A stretch of DNA of 64,000 nucleotides, from positions 5,799,958 to 5,863,957 of the forward strand of contig CM085480.1 of NCBI GenBank assembly GCA_041753875.1, written 5' to 3'. Below the pieces are notes generated by a model, which was given only the letters and a program-made list of their open reading frames with translations, ran no database searches and had not been told where the DNA came from. Below, piece by piece: positions 13,893 through 46,232 of this stretch. The translations under genes and the position numbers were made by a program. Position 1 is the first letter of the stretch. Every line of letters starts with the position of its first letter. This DNA is from Acanthopagrus schlegelii (taxonomy: Eukaryota).

Positions 13893-13928
<36 letters not shown>

Positions 13929-13997: not shown

Positions 13998-14048
<51 letters not shown>

Positions 14049-18747: not shown

Positions 18748-18849
18748 GTCCCAGGAGCTCAGAGAGGAGGCTTCATGGAGCCGTGGTTCTCTGTCTGGGG
18801 CTGCTCAGTGTTGTCCTGCTGGTTGGACTCATCAGCCTCGGTGTCACCT
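18748..18849 (+). CDS. Gene C exon 2: TM anchor (GPRSSERRLHGAVVLCLGLLSVVLLVGLISLGVT)
   Basis: Same splice sites as B exon 2, 102 nt long. Confidence 0.8.
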
Positions 18850-19426: not shown

Positions 19427-20264
19427 GTGAGTGCTCGCCTGCCTGTGTGTGTTCTGCACAGCTGTCTGTTAACATGAAGGACAGGAGCTGCCACGGCCTC
19501 ATTTATAGAACACCTATATACAGAGACTGTGCTGATCAGACACTTGTATCCCACTCTCACTTCTGTAAATTACATTCATGTACCCATGACTTTATTCATT
19601 CTTTCAATTCATTCAAACAGGAATATATTTAAGTTAATGCACCTTTTTTACTTGGATAGTTTAATAGTTTCCATATCATATATTTTTTTTTAATATAACG
19701 CTATGTCTTCAGTGTGGCCACTGACTGTGACATGATCCTTCTTGAGTTTCACACTTGAAAGACTTTCAATTCCCTATAACATTGTGTGAACCACCCAATG
19801 AGAGTGCAGCCTTTTTAAGGGTGGAGTCCAATTTACAATATTTTCCCCCTCTTGAGACCTTTCCTTATTGCCTTACTTTTTGAGTTCATTGAGTTGGAAA
19901 TGATACTAATGAAATTATTGTGAGGGAGCACAAAAGTATTGCTTCTATTGAAGACCTGAGAGGCAAGTCATCCAAACAGTTAGGGAACTTCAAAAGATAA
20001 CCCCCCTGTAAATATTTTTTCCACCTTGTGTCATAAACATGACAGGGGAAACAATCTAGATTTTAAATAGTCTGTGAAATAGTAAGTGCTGTCAAGCAAT
20101 TTAGAAAATGATCTAATCAATTACAAGCTTTGTGATTAATTAAGCAAATCATGGGGTGTCTTGAGTTAGAGAAGACATCTTATACATCTCTCATCTATTT
20201 ATAGATGGAGCATTCAGCTAGAGTCATTTCCTTGTAATTGCTTGTCTAGCAGCAATACCAAATA

Positions 20265-23050: not shown

Positions 23051-26000
23051 AGGATAAATATTGGTTAAATCCCCATCACTTGGGATGCAGTGGAGGAGTG
23101 CAGACTGTGTTGGTGAGCTCTCGGTGGTGGAACCTATCATCTGCTTTTATCCTGATTTAACCTCACACATCTTTGGTTTATCTGCAAGAGGTGAAGCCAA
23201 TAAGAGCACTTTTATATGGCAAGCTACAATTTTCAGCATACAAAGCGAAAGAAAGCTGCAACTCAAATTTCACGGTACCTGCATGCTGTAACCATAAGAA
23301 ACATGGCGGACGGGGAAAAAGAAATATCCTTCAGCAAATTTCTCGATGCTATTCAAGAAACTAAAAATGACCTCACAAAACATTTTGACAAGAAAACAGC
23401 ATACAAACAACGTTAACGAAAATCGAGTCCTCACTCTCTACGCTGGCGGAACATGTCAAGGAGATGCACACACGAGTGAGTACGACAACGAAGACGATAT
23501 CAAAGATACCCACGACCGTGTTGCTGAAATGGAGAAACTGATAACGCACCTCAAAGACAAAACTGACAATTTAGGAAACCGCAGCAGGAGGTCTAACATT
23601 GGATAGTAAATGTTCCGGAACAAGCAGTGGGTCGTCATACCATAGGATTTTTGAAAAGGTTTATACTGCAAGTCCTGGGTAACGATCACCTCACCTGTTA
23701 CACTGGAAAGAGCGCCCTGCATGGGGAAAAAGTTGGACAGACTGCAGCCCCTCATCACCAAATTCCTGAACTTCAGAAGTAAAGGAGAGATGACATGGAG
23801 AACAAAAGAATATTCTTTTACCCAGATTATAGCGCAAACCTGCAGCGTAGGAGAGACGTGAAGCGGACGCTGCGAGAGAAGGTGGTGGAATACGCTCTGA
23901 TCTACCCAGCCCAGCTTCACATCAAACATCTGGGAACCGTCAAGTTTTTTCTCCATTCCAGCCCAAGTGCAACGTTTTTTGAAAGAACTCCCAAGTGAGT
24001 AGCCTGACCAAAGTTACCGTTATAGACACTGATGAGGAAGAAAGGAGGAAAACAAAGGACTACAATCTGACTACACTACAAGACTTGGCTATGAAAAGGT
24101 ACAACATCAAATCTCTCCAACGTAGGAAGGCAAAACGGCTATGAAACAATATTACGCTAATATTACGCAGGCTAAGCTGTGAAAAATTAACAAACAAAAT
24201 ATCATTCCAATAGAGGAAAGAAAAGGCTATAAACTTAACTGCAAGACTGAGCTGCACTATAAAATGATTAACAAAAAATCACTCTCTAAGAGGCAAAAGA
24301 AAATACAGAATTACTGACAAGGAAAGACAAGGGTTGTGGTGAAAGTATATATACTATAAAATTAAAATACATGAGGGTGATGGGGAACAGGTGGACACAA
24401 TCAGGAATTGGGGAGACGTTCAGACTGGTGACACATGAGGAAGGGCAAGTGACCTGAAATGAGTTGCTTTTCAAAATAAAACAGGAAGTTCACGAGAAAA
24501 AAACAAAGACAAACCTCACCGCTGTGTGACACCCACAAGGCAAAACAAATTAGAAAGAGACTAACCAAATTGGAAAGAGATATTAAAAAGCAGGGAACAG
24601 GATTACATTGCCACCAAAAAGGAAGAACACCTTAATGCACTAACAAAAACAAGGATTCAATATAATAATGTACTAACAAAGAGGAAGCAGCTATGCCCAG
24701 CAATAGATATCACTATTATGAATTTGGGAACAAAACAAGTAAACTCTTGGCTTGGCAAATTAAAAAGGAAACACCTGATAACTGTAGACACTCAATATTA
24801 ACAGAGGGGGGCAGACTCCTTGATAATTCACTATCCATAAATGCAGAATTCAAACAATTTTACAAAGATTTATATAAAACTGGGCAGGATGCTGATAATA
24901 TTGGAGCAAAAAGGTTCATGGATGGAATAACCCTTCCCAAATTACAAGATGAGGGCAGAGATCTGCTTGATGCAGATATATCAGAAATGGATATACTCCA
25001 AGCAACAATCACACTGCTACCAAAACCGGGTAAGGACAAACAGAAATGTGACTCATACAGACTCCTCAGCCTCTTAAATGCAGATTATAAGATACAATCC
25101 AAACTAATTGCTCTAACACACGCTGACGAAACAGGCTTTGTTACAAACAGGCACGGAGCAGATATTGTGCAGCGACTGCTCCACATACTGAACACTGCTC
25201 AAAAAAAATCAAAATCCTATGCTAATAATGTCTATGGATCCAAAGCATTTGACAGGATTGGACCAAGCTTTCTATTTCAGACTCTAGAGGCTATGGGCTT
25301 TGGAGAGAAATTCACTCATTCACTCATTCACTCTGTTTAATGCCCCCAAAGCTAATATTTTAACAAATGACATTGTACCTATCACTTTCTCATTATCCAG
25401 AGGGTGCAGGTAAGGCTGTCCAAGCTCCCCCCTGCTCTTTGCACTTGCAATTGAACCGTTAACCATCGGCATCCACTCCAACACCCCCATAACCGGAATT
25501 TATTTGGCACAAATAAACATAAACTTTCTCTATATGCAGATGATCTCCTATTATATATAACTGATCCACACACATCAGTCCCCCCTTTTTTGGAATGCCT
25601 CAAAGAATATAGTGCAGTTTCAGGGTATAAATTCAATTACACTAATAGCGAGATTTAACCACTAAATATACAAGACAACAGTATTAGAGCTCTCACTGAC
25701 CCACTGAAATGGCGCAACATTGGTTTCAAATATTTGGGTATGATAATTGGTAAATTGCTTGAGCATATATTTAAAAAGAACTATATAAAATTATTGGAAC
25801 AAATCAAACTTAACCTTCAAAGACTGATTGATCTCCCACTGTCTCTCATAGGCAGAATTAATACTATAAAAATGAACATTTTGCCCAAGTTTATTTACCT
25901 ATTTCAGTGTCCCCCACTGAATGTTCCCAAGAGTTTCTTCAAAGAGCTTAACAAAATTATACTCCTTTTATATTGCAAAGGAAAAACCCAAAGTTTAAAC

Positions 26001-27065
26001 ACATCTCTCTACAGGCTTCATATTCAAGAGGAGGACTTAATCTACCAAATTTTAGGAATTATTATCTTGCTTCATAGTACCCATCAATCTGGATCTGGCT
26101 GCATGCAGAGAACAGTGAGGTTAGATGGGTCCCAATAGAACAACACAAGATGAAGTCTATGCCTCTAAAGGATATTCCATTCTTAGGTACAAAAAAATGT
26201 TTAGCCACACTCACGAACAATTCAATAATACTGAACACATTTTCTACTTGGCAATAATCTCACTCACTTCTTGACACAAATATTTCTTTTCTTGGAAGGG
26301 CCTCTTTGTGGGTAATCCCAACCTCTCACACCACATAGCTGAGTCAATGTTGCGGGGGTGGAGGGACATAGAAATCCAAACAGTTGCTGATTTATACATT
26401 AATGATTCATTTACTAATTTCCAAAAACTAAATGAAAATTTCAACCTTCCCAAAGTTAGTTTCTTCAAATTCCTACAAATTAGAGACTGGGTTAAGGAGA
26501 AATCCAAAGAAACATTCCCATATATCCCAAAAGAATCTCCTCTTGAAACCCACCTAACAAATTACACAGATCAACAAAAGGAAAAAAATATATATATGGT
26601 ATCATCAGTGGAAAGTTGCCTTTTTATGATAAAACATTTACAAAGGGGAAATGGGAAACAGACCTAGGCTGTATTAATGAGGAGGCAGACTGGCATCATC
26701 TATTGGAACAGGCACAGACTGTACTAACCTCCACAAAACACAGGCAAATTCAATTCAAAATATTCCATAGGCCATACTACACCTCTTACAGTTTACATAT
26801 TCATTTGTGTATGTTTCTATTGTAAAATCCAACTTTCAGTGTATCAAACTGTAGATGCTTGCTATACACCATAAACATCAGCTCTTCTGGAGCTACTGTT
26901 GATCAAAACAAATCTTACAAAAAAAAAAATCTCCATCACTTAAGTTTTTCGTGTTCTGATTCTGTTAAATGGGCCTCTGGTAAGAAAGCTACGTCCACCC
27001 CCTCCCTCTTCAATTTTGTCATAACCTTGCTCCTTCTGATGGGATTTTCAAACCATTGACATTGT
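23050..27065 (+). mobile_element. Second L1-like LINE on the plus strand. It has a 5'UTR and a disrupted ORF1 from ATG 23303. Its ORF2 lacks most of the endonuclease but retains the RT.
   Basis: ORF1-like sequence includes ...NRSRRSNI.. and YPAQLHIKHLGTVKFF, which resemble the L1 ORF1p RRNNIRIIG and CTD motifs. ORF2 RT sequence includes ITLLPKPGKDKQKCDSYRLLSLLNADYKIQSKLIA..DETGFV and [34 protein letters not shown], and it also carries a thumb region and a C-terminal region. Confidence 0.8.
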
Positions 27066-28300
27066 ACGTGATTATTTTAGTTGACTTCATACCTTACATT
27101 TAGTTTTGTTGTTTTAAGCCCCTGTACGCCTGTAACTGAGTCATATCTTACACCCCTGGTGCTGTAAAGAATGATACCACAAACCATAAGGGAAACAAAA
27201 CTGTTAACCTGCATCACATCACAATCAATAACATCGTCATCCAAAATTAAGGCCTCTTTGATGGCCTCCTGGCTCTGATGGAATGTGAGTCCGACCACAA
27301 AACCTGTCCTCCATAAGCCCTTACTCTCATCTTGCTGATGCAATCAATGTCATGTACAGGAATATGTTTGATACTAGAATGTCCAAAAAATTATTCACTG
27401 CACTGTAAAAGATAACTAAAGAATGCTATAACTATATGAATGTCATTTTTGAATTTGATTGATCTTGGCGGGGCATCCATCGGAGGATTTGAGGCGAGTG
27501 CCCGGTGCGCTCTCTTGATAATTAGCGCTGCAGAGGGAGGGAGCTCCTGGCCCTTCAACAGTAAATCTTCCACCAAAGTAATCACCGATGTCATGTTTTC
27601 TTCAGCTCCTTCTTTTACCCCATGTATTCTGACATTGTCATGAAATGAGGACCCCTGTATATCAGTCAACTTAGCCTCCGTTTGTACATGAAGCGTCACC
27701 AGCTCCGATAAAACATCCTCTGCTGACTGGATTCAGGTCTCGGCTGCTTTGATTCGTTTCTCTGCTTCTTCCATAATGTTACGACCCTCTAAAAAAAAGA
27801 CAGCTCGTCCACAGAAGGCCCCACATAATTAATCAGTCAGGAAAATCCCAATAATTGACCACTTTATTTATAGTGCAAGCCACATTCCTTCCTCTTTTAA
27901 GTCTTCCCCTCAATTATCAAATAAGGGCCACCTGGGAGAAAGCACAACACAACAAACAAAATGGTCAACAGAATCTCTGGTTATACCTTTCCCATCCAGC
28001 AGGGGGGGAGTATGTAAATGTTGTTGTCAGTATCCTCTCGCATGCTGTTTACTTAGCAGTCCTTCCTGAATTCTCTTAGTTCTTTCAGTATTACATCCAG
28101 CCTTTCGTGTTTGTCCCGACTCTGCGTCGGTCTGCATACTGGTCTCCATCCTGCTAATGCTGCTAACTTGCAGCGGATGACCTTCTCTTCGTCATCGTGT
28201 TTCTTACTTTGTGCAAGTATTTTCTTCCCCTTTCTGATGGGCATGCTCTATCAAATGTTTTTTGTTGTTGTTGACTATACTGCAGTTTTTATTCATGCTT
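27066..28300 (-). mobile_element. L1-like ORF1 region (coiled-coil plus RRM-like/CTD) on the minus strand. It is probably the 5' portion of the minus-strand LINE at 20265-23050, split by the plus-strand LINE.
   Basis: Minus-strand ORFs read NVRIHGVKEGAEENMTSVITLVEDLL..IKRAHRALASNPP..PRSIKFKNDIHIVIAF and FVVGLTFHQSQEAIKEALILDDDV. These match L1 ORF1p conserved blocks. Confidence 0.6.
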
Positions 28301-28371
28301 GTCGTTTATTGATTGTTTTTGTACTTGTAAGGCAACCTTGAGTGCCATGACAGGCACCATCAAATAAAATG

Positions 28372-28379
28372 TATTATTA

Positions 28380-28413
<34 letters not shown>

Positions 28414-28414
28414 C
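28372..28414. repeat. (ATT)n microsatellite
   Basis: Direct reading. The copy-2 counterpart is at about 60437-60467. Confidence 0.9.
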
Positions 28415-28829
28415 ATAGTCATTCGCCCATTAAAACTCAGCTTGCTTTGACATTACTTTAATAAATTTGAGTTTATCAGACGTTTTTGAAATATTGCTGT
28501 AGGGAGCCTGCTGCCTAAGCTGCCATTATGTCACCCGCAAGAACGGAAGTCCTCAGCATAAAGATTTAACAATGTGCAAATATTGAGAGGAGATCAATAG
28601 CTTCAGTTTCTAAGATTGAAGTTATTGTCATTGAAAAATATTTTGACTTTGATGAGTTATTTTGTTCCGTTCTTATTTAAGTAAATATAAATATATAGTG
28701 AATATCAATTAGCACATCAGTTAACAACATTTTCATCCAAAGAACATGCATTTAATCCACAACCTCCCAAGCTGGACAACATGGACGTTGTCTGATTTTG
28801 AATGTTACTTTTTTTGATGCTTTTTCTAG

Positions 28830-28972
28830 AGAGAACTTGTCCTGCAGGATGGAAGATGTTCAGTTGCACCTGCTATCTCTTCTCTGCAAAGACTGATTCT
28901 TGGGAAAATGGCAGACAAGACTGCAGAGACAGAGGAGCAGAGCTGGTGACCATTGACACTGATGAAAAACAG
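28830..28972 (+). CDS. Gene C exon 4: CRD exon 1 (N/K)RTCPAGWKMFSCTCYLFSAKTDSWENGRQDCRDRGAELVTIDTDEKQ
   Basis: Acceptor tttctag|AG and donor aacag|GTAGTG. It is 143 nt long. The flanking intron sequence is homologous to gene B at 8200-8350. Confidence 0.8.
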
Positions 28973-29249
28973 GTAGTGAGGAGTTTTTCTTTATATTGCT
29001 TAGATTGTGGAGTCCCCTGAGACAAATGTTTGATGTGAATAAAACTGACCCCTGCATGCCTTCTTACCTTCCTAAATACTTTATGTGCACCTCAGTTTTT
29101 GCCCCCCATAAAAGTAAGGGAACAAATTACTGAGAGGCAGAAAGATCACACGACATTAATCAGAAACAAAGCCCAGCAAACCTGGCAGGAGTTCATCCAC
29201 TTGACAAAACACAGATAGGCGAGAGTGTGATGGTCAGTCCATGCGAGGA

Positions 29250-30300
29250 CATTATTCCTCCTGACTCTGGGAGAAGATGAGAATATGATCTAAATAAGTG
29301 AACACAAACCAGTTGTCACTGAGAACATCGTTGACCAAGGCCTGGAAGACAACAGGGGAATTGGTGGGACCAAAAGTCATGACTTGGTACTCTAAATGGC
29401 CGAGAGGATCGTCTACTAATTTCCTTCTCGTATGTGCACCCACTGATAAGCATTTCCAGGATGGCAGCCTGGTGGAGAGGTCCAAACGCTGAGTTGATGA
29501 TAGGGAGGGGGTATTTGTTTTTGACTGTTGTTTCATTCATACCTTTGTAGTCGATGGCCTTATAGATCCATCTTTTTTTAGCCACAACAAAAAAGGAAGA
29601 GTGGTGAATGAGTCTGGTGGGTATGTAAGCTGGTGATATGAGTCTCCTTTGCATCTTGTTTAGGGCGGGTAAGGTTGTAAAGACAGCTTGTAGGAAGAGT
29701 GGCACCAGGAAGTAGGTCAATCTAAGAGTTATATGGTCTGTGAGAGTGCATGGCCCTTGCTAAATATGTCGCTAGGGTTGTGATAGTTGGAGGGAACAGA
29801 GGAAAGGTCATTGTGTTCAGGGGTGGCAGGAGTGGAGTGGTAGCAGGAGGGGGCAGCAGAGTGAAGGCATGGGAATGACGAAATACACTCCATGTGATGA
29901 TTCTTGAAGCTGACCAATCAATATGGGTGTTGTGCATCTAAAGCCACAGGAGACCTAAGACAACTGGGGAGTGAGGTGAAGGGCTTACAACAAAATGTAT
30001 TGTCTCTCTATGAAAATGGAAAGAATGGAAAGAAGGAGAGTGGGTGGAACAGTACAATGAGTGATTTGAGCAGGTAATCTACCACCAAGTGCAAAAACAA
30101 AACCTTGGGAGAAGGAAGAGTCTCAGTGGGAATGTTAGCTTGGCAGACAAAGTCAGAGTCAATTACGTTATTGTCAGTACCCGAGTCAGTCAGTACCTGA
30201 AGTGGGAGAGTCTGTAGCTTGAGGCGAGAGGGCATAGAGGAGGTAGGAGTCAATCGGCTCATCAGCGCCCCGCTGTTGTGTGATGACACTGGTCTTTTAT
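29250..30300 (-). mobile_element. Ty3/gypsy-type LTR-retrotransposon pol fragment with aspartic protease plus the N-terminal RT. It is truncated after YLDHILIFS and carries frameshifts.
   Basis: Minus-strand ORFs read VLTDSGTDNNVIDSDFV, the protease D-S/T-G motif. They also read [66 protein letters not shown], the RT with a YxDD-like box. Confidence 0.8.
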
Positions 30301-31314
30301 GCAGCTATGCGCAGAGGAAGATGGCATGAATCAATCAAATTCCTTTATTGTCCCGCATGGCGCATGGCGCATGGCGTCGGTGTTCGGTCTCCGCTTGGTA
30401 ACAGATTGTTAATGTGGGGTTGAACCCAGAGGCAGTAGGACAGTTCAAAGTCAACATTCTCATGGCCTAGTTCATGAGCCATGAACAAAACAAGAGAGAC
30501 ACAAGGTGTAAACTGCAAAACTGAACCAAGTTATTAGCAAAGTAACCAAACGATACTTAAAGTCCTGATCTGACCTGAACAGGCCGACGCCAACTAAACA
30601 AAAAAAGGTGCTCCCAGGGGTGTTGATTATCACACCAGGAACCTGCAGGACAACAGACAAACATGAGGGAAAACACACACACCCACACACAGCAGGCCCT
30701 GCTAAAGCATGCGGGCCATCACACCATAAGGAATGGAACAAGCTGGCACAGGAGCAGTGAAGAGACAGGGTTAATACAGCAGGGGTTGATGAGATGATGA
30801 CATGCAGGCGTGTCCCTCAGCTGCAGCAGGCACAAGTCAGTGGACACAGACTCACACTAGGGAGGAGCAGGTGATGGAGGAAGGAGGGGGAGCAAACAGA
30901 TGTTATCAAATAACTAGCCCACATGGTAATCGTATGACTTCAGACTAACCAGAACGAAGCATTTTACGACACTCTGTTATACACGTTACTATACATTGAT
31001 CAATGTAAAAAGTTGTAAAATGAGAGTTAGAATAGTTTGTCACTAAATACGGATTGGTGATAAAAGTGTCTCCGTGTTCGATGTGATGAAGTTTGGTTTC
31101 ATTTGGTCTCATTTGGACACTTGTTAGCAACTGACTTTCTAAGACATGTAAACACTTATAAATCAAATGTAAAGTAAAAATATTTATTATATTCTGTTGT
31201 ACTCATAAAAGTTTGAAGTGAATGTTACTGTACTGTTCAGATGAATCCATATTAAATTTGATATGGTTCAGAATTAAATAGAAACAATGGCTTTATTTCC
31301 TTTACCTTGAACAG

Positions 31315-31421
31315 GAGTTAATCTCTAAATTCATCAAGGAAGATACTTGGATTGGTTTGAATGACAAAGACGAGGAGGGGACCTGGAGATGGATAGATGG
31401 AACTCCATCACCGACTGTGGT
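31315..31421 (+). CDS. Gene C exon 5: CRD exon 2 ELISKFIKEDTWIGLNDKDEEGTWRWIDGTPSPTV(V)
   Basis: Acceptor gaacag|GAGTTA and donor gtggt|GTAAGG. It is 107 nt long, one codon more than in gene B. Confidence 0.8.
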
Positions 31422-31532
31422 GTAAGGCAAAGAGAAGATGTTCAACACCTGATTTCAATATAGACACATATACAATGTTTGAATAATAGTTATCAGAATC
31501 AGACTGACTCACTTCCTTTAATAACCTCCTAG

Positions 31533-31690
31533 GTACTGGTTGGAAACACAGCCTGATAATGGTGGTGGAGACGCAAAGTGGGGCGAAGAGGACTGTATAC
31601 ACCTCGTATTTGGTGTGAATGTAAAAAAAAAACTGGAATGATGTGCGGTGTGATAAGCCTTTGAAGTGGATCTGTGCCAAAATGCCTTAG
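31533..31690 (+). pseudogene. Gene C exon 6, frameshifted. It reads YWLETQPDNGGGDAKWGEEDCIHLVFGVNVKKK then shifts to a premature TGA at 31639-31641. The homologous stop is at 31688-31690.
   Basis: At 31621-31633 the sequence is GT followed by 10 A's then CTGG. The intact copy at 63730-63745 reads gtcaaaaaaaactgg. One extra A plus a C-to-A change shifts the frame. This removes the WND motif and the last conserved Cys residues. Confidence 0.7.
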
Positions 31691-31726
31691 TATTTACATG
31701 AGCTTTGAAACAAAGCATTTATGAAT

Positions 31727-31728
<2 letters not shown>

Positions 31729-31792
<64 letters not shown>
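31729..31792. repeat. (GA)32 microsatellite in the gene C 3'UTR
   Basis: Direct reading. Confidence 0.95.
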
Positions 31793-31797
<5 letters not shown>

Positions 31798-32575
31798 ACA
31801 GAAAAGCTGAAATTGTATTTCTTGTAATTACATGAGAATAAGCTAATACTTAGCATGAGCATTTAGCATTTGTACCCGTTATTCTATCATAAAGACAGGC
31901 TTTTAATGATCAGATAATTATAATAAAGTTGTTTGATATCATATCTGAAGGATCTGCATGTCTTGTCAAAATTCTTGTTGCACAAAATAAATGCAGCAGC
32001 CAGTTTCCACGACACAGCCAAGAACTTTCAGTGTAAGTACCCTGTATTTGTAATTAACATTTCAAGGTGATGATACTGACACAAGATATCTGTGAAGGTT
32101 ACTACCGGTATGTCGTATGTCTCTATCAAATGGAAATCACATGTATGTTCCTGAAAGAGCTCATGTTACACTTATAAGGTCCACAAAATAATAATTGGTT
32201 AACTCTGGGGACAATACACAGCTTAACAACCTAAATATGCTTATAGTGAATTACCAAGTACTTTACAGTAATTCATGGTAATTCTACCACTACAACATGC
32301 CATTATGTCACTGATTTAAACTATTTCTAAGTAATTTTGCCACATTACAACATAATTAGCAGGCTGTAAATTAAGGGGTTACCAAACCTACTACTTTAAA
32401 TATATATTAATTATTACCACAGTTGTTGTACCTATGTTATACTGAGTGAATATTTGCTATATAAATTTTGACCATCCAGATTTAACTTTTTTTCAATAAG
32501 GACAACTTGTTCAATAAAGACCTTTAAACTCAGATTCACTACTTTGACCAATTCAGACGCACTAATTTTCCCACT

Positions 32576-32577
<2 letters not shown>

Positions 32578-32627
<50 letters not shown>

Positions 32628-32632
32628 TAATA
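32578..32632. repeat. (TAA)n microsatellite
   Basis: Direct reading. Confidence 0.9.
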
Positions 32633-35600
32633 ATCTCTCTGATTACTTTATAATTACTGTAACATTTCAAAGTCCATTTCAACAAACAGTATATTTATGC
32701 CAGTAGCAGAGGTGATACTGCAAATTCTGAGCCTGAGCTCGGCTGTTGTTGAGGTCAGCAAGTAAGTCCTCAGTTGCCAAAACCATTTCTTTAAAAGAAA
32801 ATTCAATGGAAAGTCAACTCAAATCATAGTATACCAATTCATTATTTCTTTTTTCTTTCATTTACATGTTTCCCCAAATTTCTTTTACTATACAGTTTTT
32901 TAGAAAAGAAAAACATTTTTTTAGAAAAAAACTGTATAGTAAGCTCAAATGACATTGTAATAGTATTGTCAGGGTCCTTTTGAATGAAACTGGGCTAAAG
33001 AAACATGGTCTGAAATATGTGAAAATATGCTCCTTTTTTTAAAATCACACAGGATCCGCGCTGTATCTGGATTTTATATAAGGTAACCCACAACTGCGTT
33101 GTAACACTGCATCATATCTGCAATTAGATAGCAGCCTCTGCTCCCTGTATTCTGTGGCTCAAACTTAATTCCACTGAAGTGAATATCTGTTCATTATTGT
33201 CTTTGGCTATGTACCACCATGAAGTTAGACATTAAAATAGAATGAATGAAAAGCTCACTGAACAATGCATTTCCTGTGACTAGCCTACCAAATTAAAGTC
33301 TTTTTCAACCCCATTTTGCCAGTTAAATGCTTTAATATGAAGTTGTTCAGTTTGCCTCAGCAGTACATGAGGACAACGCTGTACAGATAGAGATCTAGTT
33401 AAAAAGTAGGTAAGAAAACACTGATGCAACCTTACATAAAATATAAATTAAGTCATTCAAGTTATCATATCTCAAGTGAAGACTCGGGGCCTTCAACTTC
33501 CAAGTGCAAGTTGAGTATATATGAGTATCATAAGATAGATAGAACAGAAGGTGGTGGCGGGCATGTTGGATAAAACTATGGACACACGGACACCTGCAGG
33601 GGAAGACGGCCACTCCGGTCCTGCGTTTTCCATGTGCCAGGCTCAGCCGGAGGAAGATGAGCAAGAAGAAGAGGAGATGGATCAGCAGCGGGTACAGGAG
33701 GAAGAGGACGAGGAAAGGGGCGGGCATGGCCACCCACAGCCAACCACTGCAGGCACGGACACTTGCCATGATGCTAATGCTAACACTGACATTAGCCAAC
33801 AACCCGGGGATGGACCACGGCGCCCCATCAGGAAAATTCACCCTTCAAGGCTGATGGCAGAGATCTTTCAGTGCTGCCTGGTTGACACATACAGCTGGCG
33901 TGAATATTTGGTTGAGATGGACGCTACTCTTTTCTTTTTTTTCACAGACCCTGCCCATGACCTCTACAAACAAAGGACAAAGACTTTGGATGTTCAGTGC
34001 ATAGCTAGGCCACTTGCTTCAAATTCAGTGCGGCTACAGAGCATTTTCTGTCTGCTGAACTTTTCCCGCCTGGCGTAAAGAAAACCGCCCAATCTGGCAA
34101 CACCGGTTTTGACTCTTGGCTGTTGTGTGGAAGACTATATATGGCTTTAGGATAACCGTATCTCTTTAAAAGATACAGCTTACTGAATGACAAAAGAAAA
34201 AACAAAAGACATTTTTTCCCTCGCTGATAGTTTCCCTATAGAGCACTGTCTGGCTGAGTGACACCTCACGTAATATCTTGAACATGAAGTGCTGAATCCC
34301 AATCGTATTGAAAAATCATGCACAGCACCCCCATCAAACTGTTTAATAGTGCCACACAGACATTAAGGGCGAGGCCCTCTCCTTCAGCATGTGTTTTGGC
34401 AATTTCACAATCAATCTGCACAGGTGTGTAAATGGTAGGTTACCACAATCTAAACATCAGGTACGTTCTAATAGAGAATTCCGTATTGATAATACTATGG
34501 CAATTTTAAACAGCTTAATGGGAGTGCTGTTCTTGATTTTTTCTTTTTTGCTTATTGTCATTTAACTGAAAGCAAATCAGAATTTCTCAAAATGGCTGTT
34601 GCCTAGTCAGCAGGTCATCCAAACTATGAAGTCACCGTCAACCCAACAGCTCCTTGGCCTTCGATCTAAAGAGGGTGTGTGACTCATTTTCTCCCCCTCT
34701 GTTTTCTTTGCAGTTGCAGTTACATTTTACAGGTCGTATTTGTCTGCCACAGCATTGATATCTTCCCTTAACGCACAAATAAGTGAAGCCATTTAAATCA
34801 TTGTGGTACCAGCTACACATAAATAATTTAAATCTCAGATGTCATAATATAGTTCCTGAATAAACTTTTCAAATGTATTTAGTCCTGTAGTAGTCTATTC
34901 TTTATGGCATAAACTGTCTTAATGTCTATTTTTATTCCAGTGTCATGAAGAAGATGACTTTGCAGCAGAAATATTGGTTGGTTCGAGGCATTCACGTGAG
35001 CAGCGTTTGAGTCCAAGACAAATAAAGTACATTGTTGTCTTCGTCGTCTACGACATTATTCGGCAAACATGTCATTTGTTATTGAAACACAGGCAGATTA
35101 AGCTGCTTAAAACATTGTTTTTGACAGAACAAAGAACAAATTGTTCTTGACATTAAATGTGCAAATAAGAGAAGCAGTTGACAGGCCATTACGCACAAGG
35201 TTAAATAAGCTAAACTAAATAAACCGCACATTTGCTGCAACATTTTCTTGAATAAAGGCCACTCGTTTGAAAAATAAAAAAAGCGAGCTTTATTAACAAA
35301 GCTGAGTTCTGAATATGAAAATCCAAAACAAAAGGCAACAAAAACAAGAAGAGTGGGCAGGAGCAAATAAAATAAAGAAGTACAAAAAGTAACAATTAAA
35401 CTGCTGAAGGAAGAAGCACAGGGAACACAGGCAGGGACTCAGGGAAGATGAAACAACATGGAGAGAAGACGGAGTCCGCGAAACGGACAGGTGAGTGAAG
35501 GAACGGAAAAACACTGGGAGGGAAAAACACAAAGGAGGAATCGAAAGCAAGACGAGACACATGAGGGAAAATTTTCAAATTAAGACAGATTGATGATATT

Positions 35601-36571
35601 CCCCACTGCTCTGAAGACTTGCTTAGATACAATGCTGGTGGTCATATTGCCATGTATTTTCTGGTAACCTTTGCAAGTAGGTACATCGGGTATCTGGACC
35701 GGTTGTTGTTGCACCAAGCAAGAAGATGTGAAGTCCAGGGCTTCCTTGAGCACAGAGTCTTGGGGATGGGTTTTAACTGGGTCTGGTCTCTTGTTTTGCT
35801 GAGGAGGTGGGCCAGCTTCTTTTTCTTGTCTCTGTCTGTTGAAGCACTGGGTCTTGGCTGCACAGCTCCATCGTCCTGCTCATCGAAATTCTTTCCCTCG
35901 TCATCAAGCTCATAGCCAAACAGGAAAAAAAGACATCTCAGGGTTTTTTTGTAGGTTGAAGCCAACAGGTGCACAGTGCGTCGTTCTGGATGGCACGTTC
36001 TCCGATCAGGAAGTTAAACTGCCTCTGTGTCACTGTGTCAAACATGCATGGTGTGAAGAAAAGAGGGGGTGTGACTTGACTGTGTCACCATGGTAATGCA
36101 GTAACAGCGGCAGGCCTGCTAAAAAACACTTGCATTTTGTAGTAGAATAAGAGTGAGAATACAACAAACATTATAATGTATATATCATATATCATATATA
36201 ATATTATATAATTAATAAATATTCATTCATTCATCAGGAAAAGGGATCTCTGATGGATTCTGGTGGTTCACCACACATTTATTCACTCCTGTTTTGAGTT
36301 AGTTTAAAGTCAACAATCCAATGCAATAGTCCATTTATTTTTTAGAAAAGTGCCAATTGAAAAGGACCACAGACTTATTTGGACATGTTTGTGTACCATT
36401 ACACAGATTTGGAACTTAAAGATATTGAGTTGGTGGTTTATGTTTCCTGTGCAAGCTATTTTGTCACCTCTAAAAACTGATGACTTCCTGAAAACCGTGA
36501 GAGATGTTGAATCCACCATCATCATATACATGCGCTGACCGTTCAGGAGACAGCCGGTTACCTTTTGAGCG

Positions 36572-36641
36572 ATGGAGGAGATCTATGCAAATGTTGATTA
36601 CAACAAGCCTGTCGACCCAACACCTTCAACAAATCAGACAG
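36572..36641 (+). CDS. Gene D exon 1: the duplicate of gene B in copy 2 of the duplicated segment
   Basis: Same sequence and splice sites as 4503-4572, offset about 32068. Confidence 0.75.
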
Positions 36642-36735
36642 GTAAGAATGCTCACACACACACATGGGTTGTGCATATTGATGTTGTGTATTATCCTGTG
36701 TTATGATCATGATATCATGTCCTCTCTGTGTTCAG

Positions 36736-36837
36736 GTCCCAGGAGCTCAGAGAGGAGGCTTCATGGAGCCGTGGTTCTCTGTCTGGGGCTGCTCAGTGTT
36801 GTCCTGCTGGTTGGACTCATCAGCCTCGGTGTCACCT
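36736..36837 (+). CDS. Gene D exon 2: TM anchor
   Basis: Homolog of 4667-4768. Confidence 0.8.
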
Positions 36838-37246
36838 GTGAGTCTGTTTTTCATCAGTCAGTGTCGGGTGAACTTGTGAGAGATGCTCGTGTCTTTATGA
36901 ATATGATTTTACAGCCATGGTAAATATATTCCAGCAGCTAACGCAGCAAAATGACATATTTGAACATCTGTGGATGATGAAGAGCTGAACCATGTTTGAA
37001 TTCAGGTGCAGGTTGCTCAGTATTTAGATATTTGCTGGGGAAACATCAGAGCATATTATTATAAAGACTGTACATCACTGTTTGGACTTCAAGTTCATTT
37101 CAGCCCTCAGGTTGATATTTCATAGACTGCATGAGCAGAATGAACATCTTCCTCTGTCAGGACAAATTAGGATGATTTTGACTCAAATATAGAACCTTTA
37201 GTCAGTATTGGTATCAATGCATGAGTGAATCTTGATTTAATTTCAG

Positions 37247-37372
37247 ACTGGGATTTAGCTGCAGAACACTCCACTGTCAAAGCCAACCTGACGGAGCGTC
37301 TCCAGGCCAGTAATGACAAGCTGTCCTCAGTATCCAAAGAGCTGGACAGACTTCAGAGTTTGTCCAAACAGA
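37247..37372 (+). CDS. Gene D exon 3: neck, 126-nt form
   Basis: Homolog of 5179-5304, reading DWD where B reads DRD. Confidence 0.8.
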
Positions 37373-40300
37373 GTGAGTGCTCGCCTGCCTGTGTGTGTTC
37401 TGCACAGCTGTCTGTTAACATGAAGGACAGGAGCTGCCACGGCCTCATTTATAGAACACCTATATACAGAGACTGTGCTGATCAGACACTCTCACTTCTG
37501 TCAGTTACATTTATGGCCGGTTTGACTTGTACCAATAACTTTATTCATTTTTTAATTCCTTCAAGCAGGAATATATATATAAGTTAAAGCACCTTTTTAC
37601 TTGGATATCTTAACAAGTTCCAGATTATAGTGTTTTTTTTAATGCTATGTCTTCAGTGTGGCCACTGACTCTGTGACAGGATCCTTCCTCAGCTTCACAC
37701 TTTCACTTCCCTATAAGGTTGTGAACCACCTAATGAAAGTGCAGCCTTTTCTAGGGTGGAATACAATATTTTTCGCTCTTTGAAGATTGTTCCTTTTTGT
37801 CGAGCAATTAAAAAAAATGATCTTGTCAATTACAAGCTTTGTGATTAATTAATCAAAATCAATCACATATGGAGCCGATATTTTAACCTTCAGTCCTCCG
37901 GTTGTATACAAATTCATAATTGCACAAAACATTGCTCCTGTAAATAGTTCCATGGGCATTTTAATGCAGCACCACTCCATTGTGGTTTGGTATTAATATC
38001 CATGCTAAACTTTTCAAATGCATTCATTCCTGTAGTAGTCTATTCTTTATAGTACATACATTCTAAATGTCTATTTTTATTCCAGTGTCATAAAGAGGCC
38101 GTCTTTGTAGCAGGAATATTGGTCAGGTCGAAGCATTTATGTGTGCAGCGTTTGAGTCCGGGACAAATTTCATCAGGGGGGACAGCAGAGTGTATTGTCA
38201 TCTTCATTGACATCATTCAGCAGGAAAATTATTCTTGAAATTAAACGTGCAAATAACAACAGAAACAGCTGACAGGCCCTTAAACAAAAAGTGAAGACAT
38301 AAATTAAAGCGGACATCTGCTGCGACAATTTCTTATATACAGGCCACTCATTTAAAGAAAAAAATGAAATAATAGATGTCTACCAAACTGAGATAAAAGC
38401 AGTCCATGGTTATGTTTTCTAACTTTAGCCGCTATATACATGTAATAAACATGCAAATGAATAGAACACTCTTTTAAAGGTCCCATATTATACTGTTTTT
38501 CATGTATTTCACACAGCTGTCAGAGGTCCAACAACACTGTATTCGATATGCATTGCCCCAAACCATCCATAGTCCTGAATTTCAGCTGTCTAAAAGTCCC
38601 TCAATTGAGCTCTACTGAATGCAGGCTGTTCAGGCTGCAGGCTAATGAGCTCTGTCTTGCCTGTTACACACCCCTCTCCGGGGGAGGATGACGCTTGCGC
38701 TACCGGTAGCATGCACTTGTGTTTTGCAGTGGATGTATGGCTATGGCTCGCGGTGATGCTTTTGTTCAACCATACCAGTTTGACCCAGAACTGGACCCAG
38801 AAGGAGAGGCTCCTGAGGAAGTACAGACCTTGTGGCTGCAGCAGGATGTTTCAGAATGGTTAGTGTGTCTGAATGATGTTAGTTTGTTCATATGTATTAC
38901 AATTACTGCCATGTAGCTAATGGCTAACAGCTAGTGAAAGCTGTGTTTGTCTCCAACACAGTCTCTAAACTCTTGGACACTGTTAGCATCGTCTCTGTCT
39001 CCAGTCTGCACGTTTCCAGATTTTTTACTGTGACAACCAAGCTCCATCATAAAATGATTAATATTAAACTCACTTGAAACACAATTGCATTGTGGACCAA
39101 AGCAGAGCTAACTATTAACTAACCAAGTTCCAGCTGACCTCACCACTCGTAGGTAACTGTAAATACTATCAAACCGCAGCGACACTTACCTGTGGCTCAG
39201 GTGCAGTTGCTGGGTCCGGTATGGTTGGGACTGATCTTTGTGCGAGGGTCAGTGTCGAGGCAAAGCCAGCTTTGTACTGACACTCGTTACTGAAGCTGTC
39301 TGATGTTAAGTGGTTAGCACACACACACAAACTAACACAACCCGTAGCCGGCACGTTGTCGTTAAAAAATGAAACGCAACCACTGTCTCCTCTGTTGTTC
39401 TGTAGCTGGGACAGAATATAGGCACTGATGTTGATTTTTACAACCAACAATAGAGTAATTTGCGTGTCTAACTCTGAGCGACGACATTGCTAAACATTGC
39501 TATCTTACAGCTGGACACACAGAACTTCACCTTGGGGATGGACGCCCCCCTCTCGGATATCTACTATCATTGTGCAGAGGAAGCCTGTCTATGTAAATGG
39601 CTACTTTCATTACGTAATGAAAGGAGCTGAATCTCAACAGACTGTAGGAGCGCTGTTTTACCAGTGGGTGGGCTGCAGAGACCATGCAGGAATCTGGTTT
39701 TACCAGTGGGTGGGCTGCAGAGACCATGCAGGACTCGTTTGCTTTCCTCATTCTGGGAGTTGGCAGGCTCAGGGAGGACCAGCTTATATATGTAGACACC
39801 AGAGAAAATGTGTTTTTCATAATATGGGACCTTTAAATGAACGTCAGGCCACTTCTTTGCATTTCAAAGTCACATGCGTAAAATAAAGTTGGATTCTGGA
39901 GGTTCCCCACACATTCATTCACTCCTGTTTTGAGGTAGTTTAAAGTCAATGATCCAACATGAAATAATCCATTCATTCCTCCTAAAATCAAATCTATATC
40001 ATCCAACTATTTCAAGGTTTTAGGTTTTATTTTTCGTATTCATTTTTACCTTTGAAGGTGTTAGTTAAGGTTTGGGTTTTTAGGAAGAAAGAAAACAGCC
40101 TTGTAGAATGAACATGTTTTTACAGTTCAAACGGGGAAAGAGGTGGGACCAACTCTTCAACACATCTTAATGACGTAACAATGCGCAAATCTTCAGTAGA
40201 GATCAATACCTTCCATTTCAAAGATTTAAAGGTTTTTGTTACATAAAAAAGATTCTGATTTTGATGAGTTATTTTGTTCCATTATGATTAAAGCAAATAT

Positions 40301-40437
40301 AAATTAGTAGTGAATATCAGTTTGAACATCAGATAACAACAGTTTCATCCAAAGAACATACACTTAATCCACAACCTCCCAAGCTGAGCAACATGGACCT
40401 TGTCTGATCTTTAACGTCACTTTGATGCTTTTTCCAG

Positions 40438-40580
40438 AGAGAACTTGTCCTGCAGGATGGCAGATGTTCAGTTGCACCTGCTATCTCTTCTCCACTAAGA
40501 CTGATTCTTGGGAAAATGGCAGACAAGACTGCAGAGACAGAGGAGCAGAGCTGGTGACCATTGACACTGATGAAGAACAG
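40438..40580 (+). CDS. Gene D exon 4: CRD exon 1
   Basis: Identical to 8370-8512. Confidence 0.85.
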
Positions 40581-42735
40581 GTAGTGAGGAGTTTTTCCTT
40601 ACAGAGCCTCGATAGATTGTAAAGTCCTCTGAGACAAATTTGTGACTTGTAAATAAAATTGACTCCTACATGCCTTCTTACCTTCCTACATACTTTATGC
40701 GCACCTCCGTTTTTGCCCCCCAAAAAAGTAAAGGAACAAATTACTGAGAGACAGAGAGATCACACAACATTAATCAGAAACAGTCAGCGAGCCTGGCAGG
40801 AGTTGAGCCACTTGACAGAACGCACAAAAGTGAGATTCTTATGGTGAGTGCACATGAGGACAAGATGGGCAGCTCCCTCCAGCCAATGTCTCTGTTCTTG
40901 GAGGGCGAAAACAACGGCCCTTTGCCAATGTTGCAGGGGTCATGAGAGGAAAGCACAGGCAGGAAGCTTTTGTTCATTGCTGTGACAGGACGGCTCCTGC
41001 TCCGGTGTCAGAGGAGTCAACCTCTGGATCCAAATATTGATACCAACGTTGGTGTTGACTTTGCTCCTCCTACCCCCTCTTCTGTTTTGATGTTCTGTAC
41101 TGTCACATGACTCAGCAGCACTAGGCAAACAAGCAGACAGAGCAGAAGAATGGCAGAGAGGAAGAGGAGCACCACGTGGCTATATTTTCAGGCCGTAAAT
41201 GAAGCAACTGCAAGCTGTATAATTTGCAAAAAGGCTGTAAGATAAAGTAGTAACACAAGAAGGGCTACAGAAACAGAGCCCAGGCCCCCGACCCAGAGGC
41301 AGAGGTCATTGGCAGAGGCCTTTCAGTCTGGCAGAGAATATAGTGGTGAAAGTAGTATTTTAGTCATCTTTGGGATTAGTTAATATTAATTTTCAAAGTG
41401 AAACTGGTCTGGTCTTGTATAAATTATGCTAAGACCTTGATATAATAGATTTATCCCATTAAAACACATTTAAATGAATACATTTACTGGAATTGAAACA
41501 AATATAGTGAATATAATATGAGTCAGATTTGATTGAGTAAAATTTGCCTTTTGTGTTAACTGTGTATGCTTACTATAATCAAACTTCAAGTGGATGTTTT
41601 TCACACTTTATTATTTTATCATTTCACTTAGCTGATTCCCCAAGAGTTTCCGAACACTCTCCCTACAAAAAATAACACACAGAGGAGCCTGCTGTGCACG
41701 AGCAGACTTGTAACCACGGTAACGGAGGATGCCAGATAACCAAGATGTCACATTCAAATAACAACAACTTAATCCCTGATTGTTCTATTTCTAGTACCAC
41801 TAAATTTAAATGACGAGTGCCTCATGCAGATCACTGTAGTAACCCGAGTAACAAACAATATTCCTCACATTGCGGTAGACAGAGTTACCATGAAATCATT
41901 ATCCAGTGCAATGTGGAAATGTTAATTCTTTAAACCAATTCAACCACTTCAGAGCGTCCTGAACACAAACTAATGTTATAACCACCCAGTCACTTGAAAG
42001 GCACTTTTGCTAACCAGTAGCCATAAAGACAGAGCTAAACACTGGAGTTAGTATACAAGCTAACAAGTTAGATTTACCATCAAGCTACGGAGCTCGACTG
42101 CAACAGGGGTCCTTACTTGTCCAGCAGAAAAGCCACTAACTCTGCGTTGCTCTTGAGCCCTTACAAATCCCACAGTTCCCTCCACCTCTGAAATGACGCT
42201 CCGATATTTATCCTTGTTTTCTCTGTGGCTCAGTCCAATTCTGTCCTTTTACACTGCTTTTCTTCCTCAGTCTTCTCATTTCTTCTCTTTGACATGGGCA
42301 GTGGTGGGGCATTGTTCAGCTCTGTTGTTGTTGTCTGTTCTCCACCATTATTTACAGTTTAGGCTTGAACTTATCTGACCAGGGTGAGAGCAGGCATGGT
42401 GCCTGCTTGGGGGAGGGGTACTGCCCAGTACATGCTGCATGAGGGAGGGGGGCTGCCAGCAGCATGCACATGAGTGATTGATACTTCTCAGCCACTCCCC
42501 TTAGCTGTGATTGGTTGTACTGAGCCATAGCACAATATAACATCTGCAAATCAAATTGAGGCCACTGGGTGGAGCCACAGACAGTGGATTTTTGCACAGC
42601 TGACCTGTATCTTATTCAGGTGCTCATAAAAGTTTGATATGCATGTTATTGTATTGCTCAGATGAATCCCTATTAAATGTAATATGGTTCAGAATTAACT
42701 GGAAATAATGGCTTTTTTTCCTTTACTTCGGACAG

Positions 42736-42839
42736 GAATTCATCTCTAAAATCATCAAGGAAGATACTTGGATTGGTTTGAATGACAGAGACAAGGAGGG
42801 GACCTGGAGATGGATAGATGGAACTCCGCCAACTGTGGT
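42736..42839 (+). CDS. Gene D exon 5: CRD exon 2
   Basis: Homolog of 10668-10771. Confidence 0.85.
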
Positions 42840-42943
42840 GTAAGGCAAACAGTAGCAGACTCTACATTACTAGAGTCATTTCTGTCTGATTGAACAATTG
42901 TTATCAGAATCCGACTGACTCACTTCCTTTAATAACCTCCTAG

Positions 42944-43100
42944 GTACTGGTTTGAAACACAGCCTGATAATGGTGGTGGAAACCCAAAGTGGGGCGAAGA
43001 GGACTGTATACACCTCATATTTGGTGAGAATGCCAAAAGGAACTGGAATGATCTGCGATGTGACAAGTCTCTGAAGTGGATCTGTGCCAAAATGCCTTAG
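42944..43100 (+). CDS. Gene D exon 6: CRD exon 3 with QPD and WND, stop TAG at 43098-43100
   Basis: Homolog of 10876-11032. Confidence 0.85.

Positions 43101-45821: not shown

Positions 45822-46232
<411 letters not shown>

Follow-up and report, generated by a model that had tools for sequence, protein, structure and literature searches.

Copy 2 of a tandemly duplicated unit in a fish lectin gene cluster lacks 2,446 bp that copy 1 carries directly behind a (GA)n microsatellite in a lectin-gene 3'UTR. Most probably, copy 2 is the derived form, produced after the duplication by a microhomology-mediated deletion at the triplex-prone GA tract. The window, which means here the whole stretch of 64,000 nucleotides that was analysed, is a teleost CD209/CLEC4-like C-type lectin cluster with the genes A, B, C, D and E. 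It contains no Ns, and no Rfam family was found over the whole window at gathering scores. The coordinates of all features are listed in Table 1.

Table 1. Positions of the features in the window (GA tracts, junctions, duplication units, segment content and genes).
Feature	Position	Strand	Basis and remarks
Tandem duplication unit, copy 1	4324..36392 (32,069 bp)	+	genes B and C with intergenic tail; self-BLAST
Tandem duplication unit, copy 2	36393..64000 (beyond window end)	+	genes D and E; self-BLAST
Gene D 5' block (upstream region and exons 1-3)	36393..37340	+	~97.6% identity to the blocks at 4324, 18404 and 50521
Gene C, type II transmembrane C-type lectin	18584..31690	+	fish-homologue tblastn, GT-AG exon models, translation
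Gene C exons	18584-18653, 18748-18849, 19259-19426, 28830-28972, 31315-31421, 31533-31690	+	
Gene E, duplicate of gene C	50700..63808	+	GT-AG exon models, translation
Gene E exons	50700-50769, 50864-50965, 51375-51542, 60854-60996, 63434-63540, 63652-63808	+	
(GA)32 microsatellite, gene C 3'UTR	31730..31793	+	39 nt past stop codon; TRF-type repeat listing, exact string matching
(GA)67 microsatellite, copy 2	63848..63981	+	39 nt past gene E stop; exact string matching
Copy-1-only segment, absent from copy 2	31794..34239 (2,446 bp)	+	self-alignment, exact string matching
Right junction, copy 1	34240..34261	+	AGAG (34240-34243) and CACTGTCTGGCTGAGTGA; 22 nt identical to 63979-64000
Copy-2 junction	63979..64000	+	repeat runs straight into sequence located 2,446 bp onward in copy 1
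Conserved lectin-family 3'UTR and downstream block	31794..32104	+	BLAST, alignment, poly(A)-signal hexamer scan
(TAA)19 microsatellite	32578..32634	+	inside copy-1-only segment; related-fish contig L001 begins here
hAT-superfamily transposon relic	33541..34165	+	protein matches P0121-P0126; tblastn/blastn to L005, L006, L007
First canonical AATAAA past the right breakpoint, copy 1	34859..34864	+	hexamer scan

Tandem duplication of the lectin genes

The two copies of the duplication unit are highly similar. In a single gapped alignment, 4324-31793 aligns to 36393-63911 with 56 gaps over 27.5 kb, and the 266 mismatches in 27.7 kb correspond to 0.96% substitutions. According to self-BLAST the copies are aligned unbroken up to the GA repeat, with 30606-31793 equivalent to 62725-63911 at 99.0%. 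The largest indel elsewhere in the 27.5 kb of aligned copies is 102 bp. Therefore, the 2,446-bp difference is an outlier among the indels between the copies.

The duplication boundary (4324/36393) coincides with the start of a 5' block of ~950 bp common to genes B, C, D and E, which occurs four times in the window (at 4324, 18404, 36393 and 50521) with about 97-99% identity. This repeat was also considered as a transposon, a reading that was rejected; it is composed of the upstream region and exons 1-3 of the lectin genes. The block of gene D has the C/E-type base at ~8 sites where gene B is unique and is B-like from about 37350, a pattern expected if the 5' block of B recombined with the one belonging to the gene that lies downstream of C. 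The unequal crossover behind the duplication probably took place here. As in NAHR within immune-receptor and lectin clusters, there are two direct 32-kb units of high identity, a boundary in pre-existing homology (~950 bp, ~97.6%) and a hybrid element, gene D, at the junction. NAHR accounts for the duplication but not for the deletion, and the crossover point is placed by about 8 informative sites only. Because copy 2 (36393) directly follows the tail of copy 1 and opens with the hybrid block of gene D, a tail is also expected after gene E.

Junction at the GA repeat

The original prediction of a segment of ~2.45 kb that is present only in copy 1 and starts exactly where the (GA)n ends was borne out by exact string matching, and (GA)32 forms its left edge. 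Among the positions given earlier, that of AATAAA at 31922-31927 was exact, but the (GA)n lies at 31730-31793 and not 31729-31792, and the 19-nt match at 34243-34261 and not 34242-34260. Likewise, the expanded tract of copy 2 does run into the sequence of 34243-34261, but its length is (GA)67 by string matching and not (GA)68, TRF reporting 67.5 copies at 63848-63982. The tract is thus twice as long in copy 2 (67 vs 32 units), and in genes B and D only AGAGAGAGAAAGAG occupies the corresponding position. A long perfect microsatellite of the kind seen at the join is also a typical place of assembler errors.

In copy 2 the (GA)n is joined directly to CACTGTCTGG. The 19-mer GCACTGTCTGGCTGAGTGA is found at 34243-34261 and 63982-64000, with the identity reaching 3 nt (AGA) further left. 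When up to 3 mismatches are permitted, these are still the only two sites in the window, and shuffled sequences give an expectation of 0.01. A coincidental match, which the original prediction had named as its possible weakness, was weighed in this way; the junction match is not due to chance, because the 19-mer is otherwise absent from the window and sits at the expected colinear position. Copy 2 is seen for 19 nt past the repeat (22 nt of match), up to the window end at 64000. The left flank is colinear over 27.5 kb and the right flank over the 22 nt seen, beyond which colinearity is assumed.

A microhomology of GA type, as predicted, was found at the junction in the form of AGAG at 34240-34243. 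It is in phase with the repeat, and the next base leftward is T vs G in the repeat. Four matching nucleotides would be expected in about 1/256 of blunt joins and are suggestive of the repair pathway. No GA tract beyond these 4 nt exists at 34240, and a repeat search found no direct repeat (target-site duplication) flanking the segment, whose edges are also free of transposon termini and of the long homology of NAHR. The breakpoint does lie at a perfect homopurine-homopyrimidine mirror repeat, (GA)32 in copy 1 and (GA)67 in copy 2.

A technical explanation would fit two coincidences: the breakpoint falls on a 134-bp perfect dinucleotide repeat, and copy 2 opens with a 5' block that an assembler could mis-thread, since the window has it four times with about 97-99% identity. 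The assembly may be at fault at (GA)67, or the two copies may be haplotypes of one locus that were placed one behind the other by way of the 950-bp block, in which case the 2.45-kb difference would be a heterozygous indel and not a difference between paralogues. The frameshift of gene C in an A10 homopolymer hints that repeat and homopolymer lengths may not be fully reliable. Moreover, independent sequence with the copy-2 junction was not found: exact patterns of that junction, and of the post-junction sequence conserved in the window and related contigs, had no match in JGI metagenome contigs, and a composite protein query of all open frames of 30900-32600 retrieved no called genes in any public contig. 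Nevertheless, this explanation appears unlikely. There are no Ns in the window, the 0.96% substitutions and 56 gaps over 27.5 kb are high for alleles in most fish, and the hybrid block of gene D is consistent with a real crossover. Rather than random sequence, the 22-nt continuation shows a clean microhomology junction, and it does so at the colinear position. Even the haplotype version would leave a real 2.45-kb deletion allele.

It is also quite improbable that a complex rearrangement was responsible, either a template switch making the duplication and the junction at once or an inversion or translocation of the tail, such that copy 2 does not simply continue as 34262-36392. Copy 2 is visible only to 64000, and replication-based mechanisms use microhomology of this kind and can embed deletions in duplications in one step. 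However, the ~950 bp in which the duplication boundary falls are highly homologous and show a hybrid pattern, which indicates homologous unequal crossing-over and not a microhomology switch. The difference in (GA)n length and the 0.96% divergence show that time has elapsed, and the junction match keeps both its orientation and the order expected of it.

Content and polarity of the copy-1-only segment

In copy 1 the repeat is followed by the 3'UTR (TTTTACAGAAAAGCTG...). The claim that the segment holds a conserved 3'UTR with AATAAA was upheld by BLAST: 31856-32104 matches 11121-11376 (91%) and 43189-43444 (91.4%), the 3' regions of genes B and D, and 708-816 matches 11126-11231 at 85%. The first AATAAA, at 31922-31927, is conserved in A, B, C and D, and the second, at 31986-31991, in B, C and D. 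As to the sequence described earlier as unrelated and GC-rich, it does follow the 3'UTR, but it was recognised as a relic of a hAT transposon.

This relic is 5'-truncated at 33541, internally deleted and degenerate in frame (ORF 33551-34078). The homologous element L006 is complete, with 19-nt inverted repeats at 81-99 and 3405-3423 and an ORF containing DUF4371 and Dimer_Tnp_hAT, and homology to it places 33541-34165 in the hAT superfamily. Identity is 84.6% between 33541-33936 and 529-927 of L006, and 95% between 33963-34002 and 2835-2874. The copy in the window is a fragment only, having neither inverted repeats, an 8-bp target-site duplication nor a transposase; the inverted repeats of the L006 family are absent from the entire window. 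Pfam searches on the ORFs of the segment and of the tail (35619-36096) gave nothing significant, and the exact window ORFs (33551/33563-34078) were absent from the protein collection searched. A 19-nt inverted repeat (32005-32023/34114-34132) was examined as a pair of element termini and treated as chance; the arm at 34114-34132 is internal to the hAT family (~3070 of L006), and the arm at 32005-32023 falls within the 3'UTR block that B and D also have.

Three independent contigs of a related fish, from three ENA samples (L001, L003 and L004; assemblies ERZ13706696, ERZ13706748 and ERZ13706909), were used to determine polarity. All of them (3/3) have the copy-1 arrangement, carrying 32575-36518 contiguously across 34240 and through TTTCCCTATAGAGCACTGTCTGG. 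They differ from the window by 2.1-2.6% substitutions, vs 0.96% between copy 1 and copy 2, and because of this larger divergence they behave as an outgroup to the duplication, although they could represent a further paralogue instead of an orthologue. Since 310 bp of the segment are shared with B and D, and since the related contigs span 34240, the difference is read as a deletion in copy 2 and not as an insertion in copy 1.

The opposite polarity, in which 2.45 kb of transposon or other sequence entered copy 1 and copy 2 is original, is very unlikely. It would agree with the transposon-derived sequence at 33541-34165 inside the segment and with the stretch 32105-32574, which has no homologue elsewhere in the data and, because the related-fish contigs begin at 32575, no support outside copy 1. 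However, the left 310 bp are the conserved family 3'UTR, whose occurrence in A, B and D as well shows that it predates the C/E duplication. The hAT relic is without termini and reaches neither edge of the segment, and the more diverged related contigs already join 32575-34239 to 34240 onward. Thus termini, a target-site duplication and ancestral absence, the marks of a transposon insertion, were all lacking for copy 1.

Cut-and-paste elements are known to leave flanking deletions, and hAT-derived sequence lies inside the segment near its right edge. An imprecise hAT excision that took the element and its left flank from copy 2 is nonetheless extremely improbable. The relic is not excisable, because both terminal inverted repeats and the transposase body are missing, and this truncated relic is also fixed in the related genome. 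Additionally, the part that is homologous to L005, L006 and L007 of the family ends near 34155-34165, leaving a distance of roughly 75 bp to the breakpoint. A deletion mediated by transposon ends was rejected on the same grounds, that relic homology ends before the breakpoint and that the inverted repeats of the family are missing.

Proposed sequence of events

For a microhomology-mediated deletion in copy 2, the following course may be proposed. Neighbouring lectin genes would have undergone unequal crossover in their near-identical 5' blocks, duplicating the 32-kb unit, and the second copy would then have lost the 2,446 bp immediately 3' of the (GA)n. The left breakpoint would fall within the (GA)n or at its end, where the tract may have stalled replication or broken via triplex (H-DNA) formation, and the right breakpoint at the 4-nt AGAG able to pair with the repeat. 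Such a pair of breakpoints is characteristic of microhomology-mediated end joining or replication slippage, by either of which repair may have proceeded. Along with the segment, the conserved 3'UTR with both AATAAA signals, the (TAA)n and the old hAT relic would have been lost.

H-DNA-forming purine tracts induce large deletions, with breakpoints near the tract and microhomologies of 1-6 bp (PMC3905860). With this c-MYC H-DNA deletion model (PMC3905860; review PMC11667243), the present case shares a breakpoint at a perfect purine-pyrimidine mirror repeat, a deletion of kilobase scale and a short junction microhomology, whose 4 nt are within the reported range. In contrast to the reporter assay, the event here would be a germline one, deduced from two paralogues; the tract is a (GA)n and not the c-MYC sequence, and the case is known from sequence alone. 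Replication slippage between the repeat and AGAG leaves a scar identical to that of H-DNA and end joining.

Coding state and transcript ends of genes C and E

In gene C the frame shifts by +1 within the A10 run (31623-31632), leading to a premature TGA at 31639-31641. As a result of this frameshift, the Pfam Lectin_C match of gene C covers only positions 2-80 of the 107 in the profile. The gene may have become a pseudogene, or the A10 run may contain a homopolymer error. In gene E, the six-exon reading frame of 248 aa is intact with its QPD and WND motifs, and the Lectin_C domain is of full length (profile positions 2-107 of 107, E=4e-21, 76.2 bits against a Pfam cut-off of 22.6). Gene E thus lacks the UTR but, with both frame and domain intact, shows no visible decay. 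Nine of the 12 codon differences between C and E (9/12) are non-synonymous.

The 3'UTR block lies in the absent segment, and gene E would accordingly lack the polyadenylation region usual for the family at the copy-2 junction, in agreement with the original prediction. For annotation, this means that gene E cannot receive the usual 3' end of the family. Because the deletion removed the conserved 3'UTR with both AATAAA signals, read-through and a new end would be needed, and gene E may either use a downstream site or have an unstable mRNA. The first canonical AATAAA of copy 1 past the right breakpoint, at 34859, is ~616 nt beyond the junction position, and its copy-2 equivalent, provided that copy 2 is colinear, would be the candidate replacement poly(A) signal. 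The gene E transcript may thus continue across (GA)67 to a new end, for which this signal is the most plausible candidate. The case resembles divergence of duplicates by replacement of the 3'UTR and poly(A) site, in that a paralogue with an intact frame no longer has its ancestral poly(A) signals, would depend on an AATAAA further downstream and is predicted to have a longer, different 3'UTR. It differs in that the evidence for gene E consists of hexamers and conservation in the genomic sequence.

If the deletion is real, it represents a natural example of a 3'UTR microsatellite seeding a kilobase deletion with a microhomology scar, in which a member of a young gene pair loses its whole transcript-termination region with its coding sequence intact. 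The mechanisms of duplication and deletion are both textbook ones; this is ordinary genome evolution, and no open general question is touched. A further reading, complementary degeneration, is doubtful: gene C would keep its 3' end and lose its frame, and gene E would keep its frame and gain a new 3'UTR of ~0.8 kb opening with (GA)67. Were it true, the deletion would be a source of different post-transcriptional regulation (a new poly(A) site, purine-rich RNA-binding sites) and not neutral damage, and a microsatellite-triggered deletion would be driving regulatory divergence in an immune gene cluster.

Like the vertebrate CD209/CLEC4 type II C-type lectins, genes B-E each encode an N-terminal cytoplasmic tail, a transmembrane helix, a neck and one PF00059 domain. 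The best matches are fish 'CD209 antigen-like' and 'CLEC4E-like' proteins with 55-65% identity, and the likeness is one of domain layout and best fish matches. The sugar-binding motif QPD, as read from the sequence only, is of the galactose type.

Organization of the lectin gene cluster

The window is eukaryotic DNA and represents a teleost gene cluster for C-type lectins of the type II transmembrane kind. A C-type lectin domain built from the last three exons before 63808 was used as query in the protein search, and fish 'CD209 antigen-like' and 'CLEC4E-like' proteins were matched at 55-65% identity. A Sparus aurata entry reached 84% over part of the query only, and no identical protein was found in the collections searched. 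Gene models were obtained by mapping two homologues back with tblastn, followed by GT-AG exon fitting. Neck exon 3 is 42 nt (14 codons) shorter in B (5179-5304) and D (37247-37372) than in C (19259-19426) and E (51375-51542), and thus the paralogues differ in neck length. An RVT_1 reverse-transcriptase ORF (Pfam, E=1.6e-8) at 24693-25340 (+), with its copy within 56800-57450, indicates a retroelement fragment in the 9.4-kb intron 3 of C and E.

Positions of the lectin genes, repeats and parts of the copy-1-only segment in the window
Feature	Position	Strand	Basis or remark
Gene A	ends 627	+	last exon only in window
Gene B	4503-11032	+	tblastn and GT-AG exons
Gene C	18584-31690	+	tblastn and GT-AG exons
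Gene D	36572-43100	+	tblastn and GT-AG exons
Gene E	50700-63808	+	tblastn and GT-AG exons
5' block of B	4324-5280
5' block of C	18404-19360
5' block of D	36393-37350
5' block of E	50521-51476
(GA)32	31730-31793		copy 1; exact string matching
(GA)67	63848-63981		copy 2; exact string matching
19-mer GCACTGTCTGGCTGAGTGA	34243-34261 and 63982-64000		exact string matching
Copy-1-only interval	31794-34239		2,446 bp; exact string matching
Conserved 3'UTR and downstream block	31794-32104		part of copy-1-only segment
AT-rich intergenic DNA	32105-33540		part of copy-1-only segment
(TAA)19	32578-32634		inside AT-rich intergenic stretch
hAT relic	33541-34165 only		5'-truncated, internally deleted, degenerate frame

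A tandem duplication of 32,069 bp was revealed by self-BLAST. Positions 4324-31793 align with 36393-63911, so that D is a copy of B and E a copy of C. In one gapped alignment, copy 1 and copy 2 differ by 266 mismatches in 27.7 kb (0.96%) and by indels of at most 102 bp; the window contains no Ns. These 102 bp, extra in copy 2 (62623-62724; copy-1 site 30606) and located in intron 4 of C/E, rank second in size among the differences between the copies. In each unit the two lectin genes are separated by a very long, imperfect (TA)n array (13776-14099, ~162 units; 45820-46270, ~226 units), unequal in length between the copies.

A ~950-bp block common to B, C, D, and E (~97.6%) starts at 4324, where the duplication has its left edge too. 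A transposon as the identity of this block was rejected, as tblastn mapping placed it on the proximal upstream region and exons 1-3. The 5' block of gene D carries the C/E-type base at ~8 sites where B is unique and is B-like from ~37350, a hybrid pattern that fits a duplication arising by unequal crossover (or gene conversion). Unequal crossing-over between the 5' block of B and that of the gene after C would produce A-B-C-tail-D-E-tail-next gene. With this product, the tail (31794-36392) would have belonged to the duplicated unit, and copy 2 should at first have held the 2,446 bp.

The copy-1-only segment and its junction

The segment and the junction are real. The original prediction placed a segment in copy 1 only, starting at the end of the (GA)n, and this is borne out by exact matching and by a 22-nt identity at the end of the copy-2 repeat (34240-34261 = 63979-64000), which reaches 3 nt further left of the 19-mer. 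The predicted 19-mer match holds as well, with its true site one base further right than claimed. No other site in the window resembles the 19-mer with up to 3 mismatches (0.01 expected by chance). The structural reading was essentially right. Copy 2 is visible for the 19 nt between its repeat and the window end. With the visible sequence stopping at 64000, a one-step complex replicative rearrangement or a non-colinear continuation keeps a low probability.

As had also been claimed, the copy-1 repeat is followed by the 3' end typical of the family. Self-BLAST showed 31856-32104 to be 91% identical to 11121-11376 and 43189-43444, in the B and D regions, with the core also in gene A. In the alignment, A, B, C, and D all retain the AATAAA at 31922-31927, and B, C, and D share a further one at 31986-31991. 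At the microsatellite position B and D carry only AGAGAGAGAAAGAG; the (GA)n therefore expanded within the C/E lineage, starting from a short GA-rich seed.

The GC-rich sequence once called unrelated is a transposon relic matching hAT-family members. Its 175-codon ORF (33551-34078) has no Pfam match and resembles a small family of unannotated metagenome-assembly ORFs at 52-96% identity. One member, L006, is a complete element: inverted repeats of 19 nt form its termini, and its 580-aa ORF encodes DUF4371 together with the hAT dimerisation domain. The window relic has no inverted repeats. The relic stops ~75 bp short of the right breakpoint, and therefore the transposon did not define the deletion; excision of a hAT element fails on the tested features and is scarcely credible. 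In two family members, L005 (~1476-1529) and L006 (~3234-3256), a (CT)n microsatellite occurs just after a conserved ...TATGGCTTTAGGA motif, where the window relic has ATCTCT only. This (CT)n is unrelated to the lectin 3'UTR (GA)n.

Probable deletion from copy 2

Two lines of evidence mark copy 2 as the derived state. The older paralogues share the first 310 bp of the segment on its left side, so this part predates the C/E split. Additionally, three related-fish contigs, each from a different ENA assembly and reached via the ORF search (L001, 3,018 bp; L003, 3,881 bp; L004, 3,025 bp), follow the copy-1 form colinearly, starting at the (TAA)n at 32575 and passing the right breakpoint. All 3 read TTTCCCTATAGAGCACTGTCTGGCTGAGTGA, and in L003 the sequence crosses from one unit to the next (36392|36393) and reaches the 5' block of the following gene. 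Substitutions amount to 2.1-2.6% between contigs and window, compared with 0.96% between the window copies and 0.6-0.75% among the contigs; therefore the contigs behave like a related lineage that diverged earlier than the duplication, although they might instead be another paralogue. In either case, the contiguous form exists outside the window's assembly. Insertion of the 2,446 bp into copy 1 fails on the tested features and is very unlikely.

The contigs also carry 236 bp and 500 bp absent from the window, at 33117 and 33516 (L001 558-794 and 1191-1691; also in L003 and L004), probably small insertions in their lineage or deletions in that of the window. Approximately 50 bp of the larger piece (L001 1288-1340) resembles window 16882-16934 and 49002-49054.

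One end of the junction lies in a perfect homopurine-homopyrimidine repeat and the other at AGAG, which continues the repeat phase for 4 bases before the first mismatch (chance ~1 in 256 for a blunt join), in agreement with the predicted GA-type microhomology. A repeat search found no long homology or flanking direct repeat at the segment edges. Purine tracts able to form H-DNA are known to cause large deletions whose breakpoints lie close to the tract and show microhomologies of 1-6 bp (PMC3905860). From the tract, the AGAG junction and this precedent, we infer that the (GA)n probably broke or stalled a replication fork and that repair by microhomology-mediated joining followed, or that slippage to AGAG occurred; the deletion would have come after the duplication. 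Doubling of the repeat in copy 2 points to the same instability. The main alternative, a technical origin by a misjoin at the long microsatellite or by two haplotypes placed in tandem via the repeated 5' block, is rather unlikely: the extent to which the copies have diverged, the hybrid 5' block of gene D, and the clean, colinear microhomology junction all argue against it.

NAHR duplication in a lectin cluster, microsatellite growth, microhomology deletion at a triplex-prone tract, and 3' end replacement in a duplicate are all known kinds of event; the locus is a new instance, not a new kind.

Consequences for genes C and E

The 3'UTR of gene E before (GA)67 is 39 nt long, and a hexamer scan of it found neither AATAAA nor ATTAAA. 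Provided that copy 2 is colinear, E would meet its first canonical signal at the site corresponding to 34859, ~616 nt beyond the junction, and the putative 3'UTR would be ~0.8 kb. The original suggestion of a downstream poly(A) site or an unstable transcript is reasonable.

The frame of E is intact (248 aa, QPD and WND motifs, Lectin_C profile positions 2-107 of 107). In gene C, which kept its 3'UTR, the last exon carries a +1 frameshift at an A10 run (31623-31632), where E has CA8 (63742-63750); the site reads GTAAAAAAAAAAC in C versus GTCAAAAAAAAC in E. The stop at 31639-31641 cuts the Lectin_C match to positions 2-80, and the lectin domain thereby loses its WND motif and its final two cysteines. 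Either the frameshift is a genuine mutation and C a young pseudogene, or the assembly contains a homopolymer error here. Neither the intact E frame nor this frameshift had been seen originally. The furthest-reaching possibility, of low probability, is complementary degeneration of both copies, with E surviving under a new 3'UTR.

Once the frame is restored, 12 codons distinguish C from E. Of these differences 9 are non-synonymous, including three adjacent changes just after the QPD motif (GDA in C versus RSQ in E; 31572-31586 versus 63691-63705). These changes could reflect diversifying selection or relaxed constraint.
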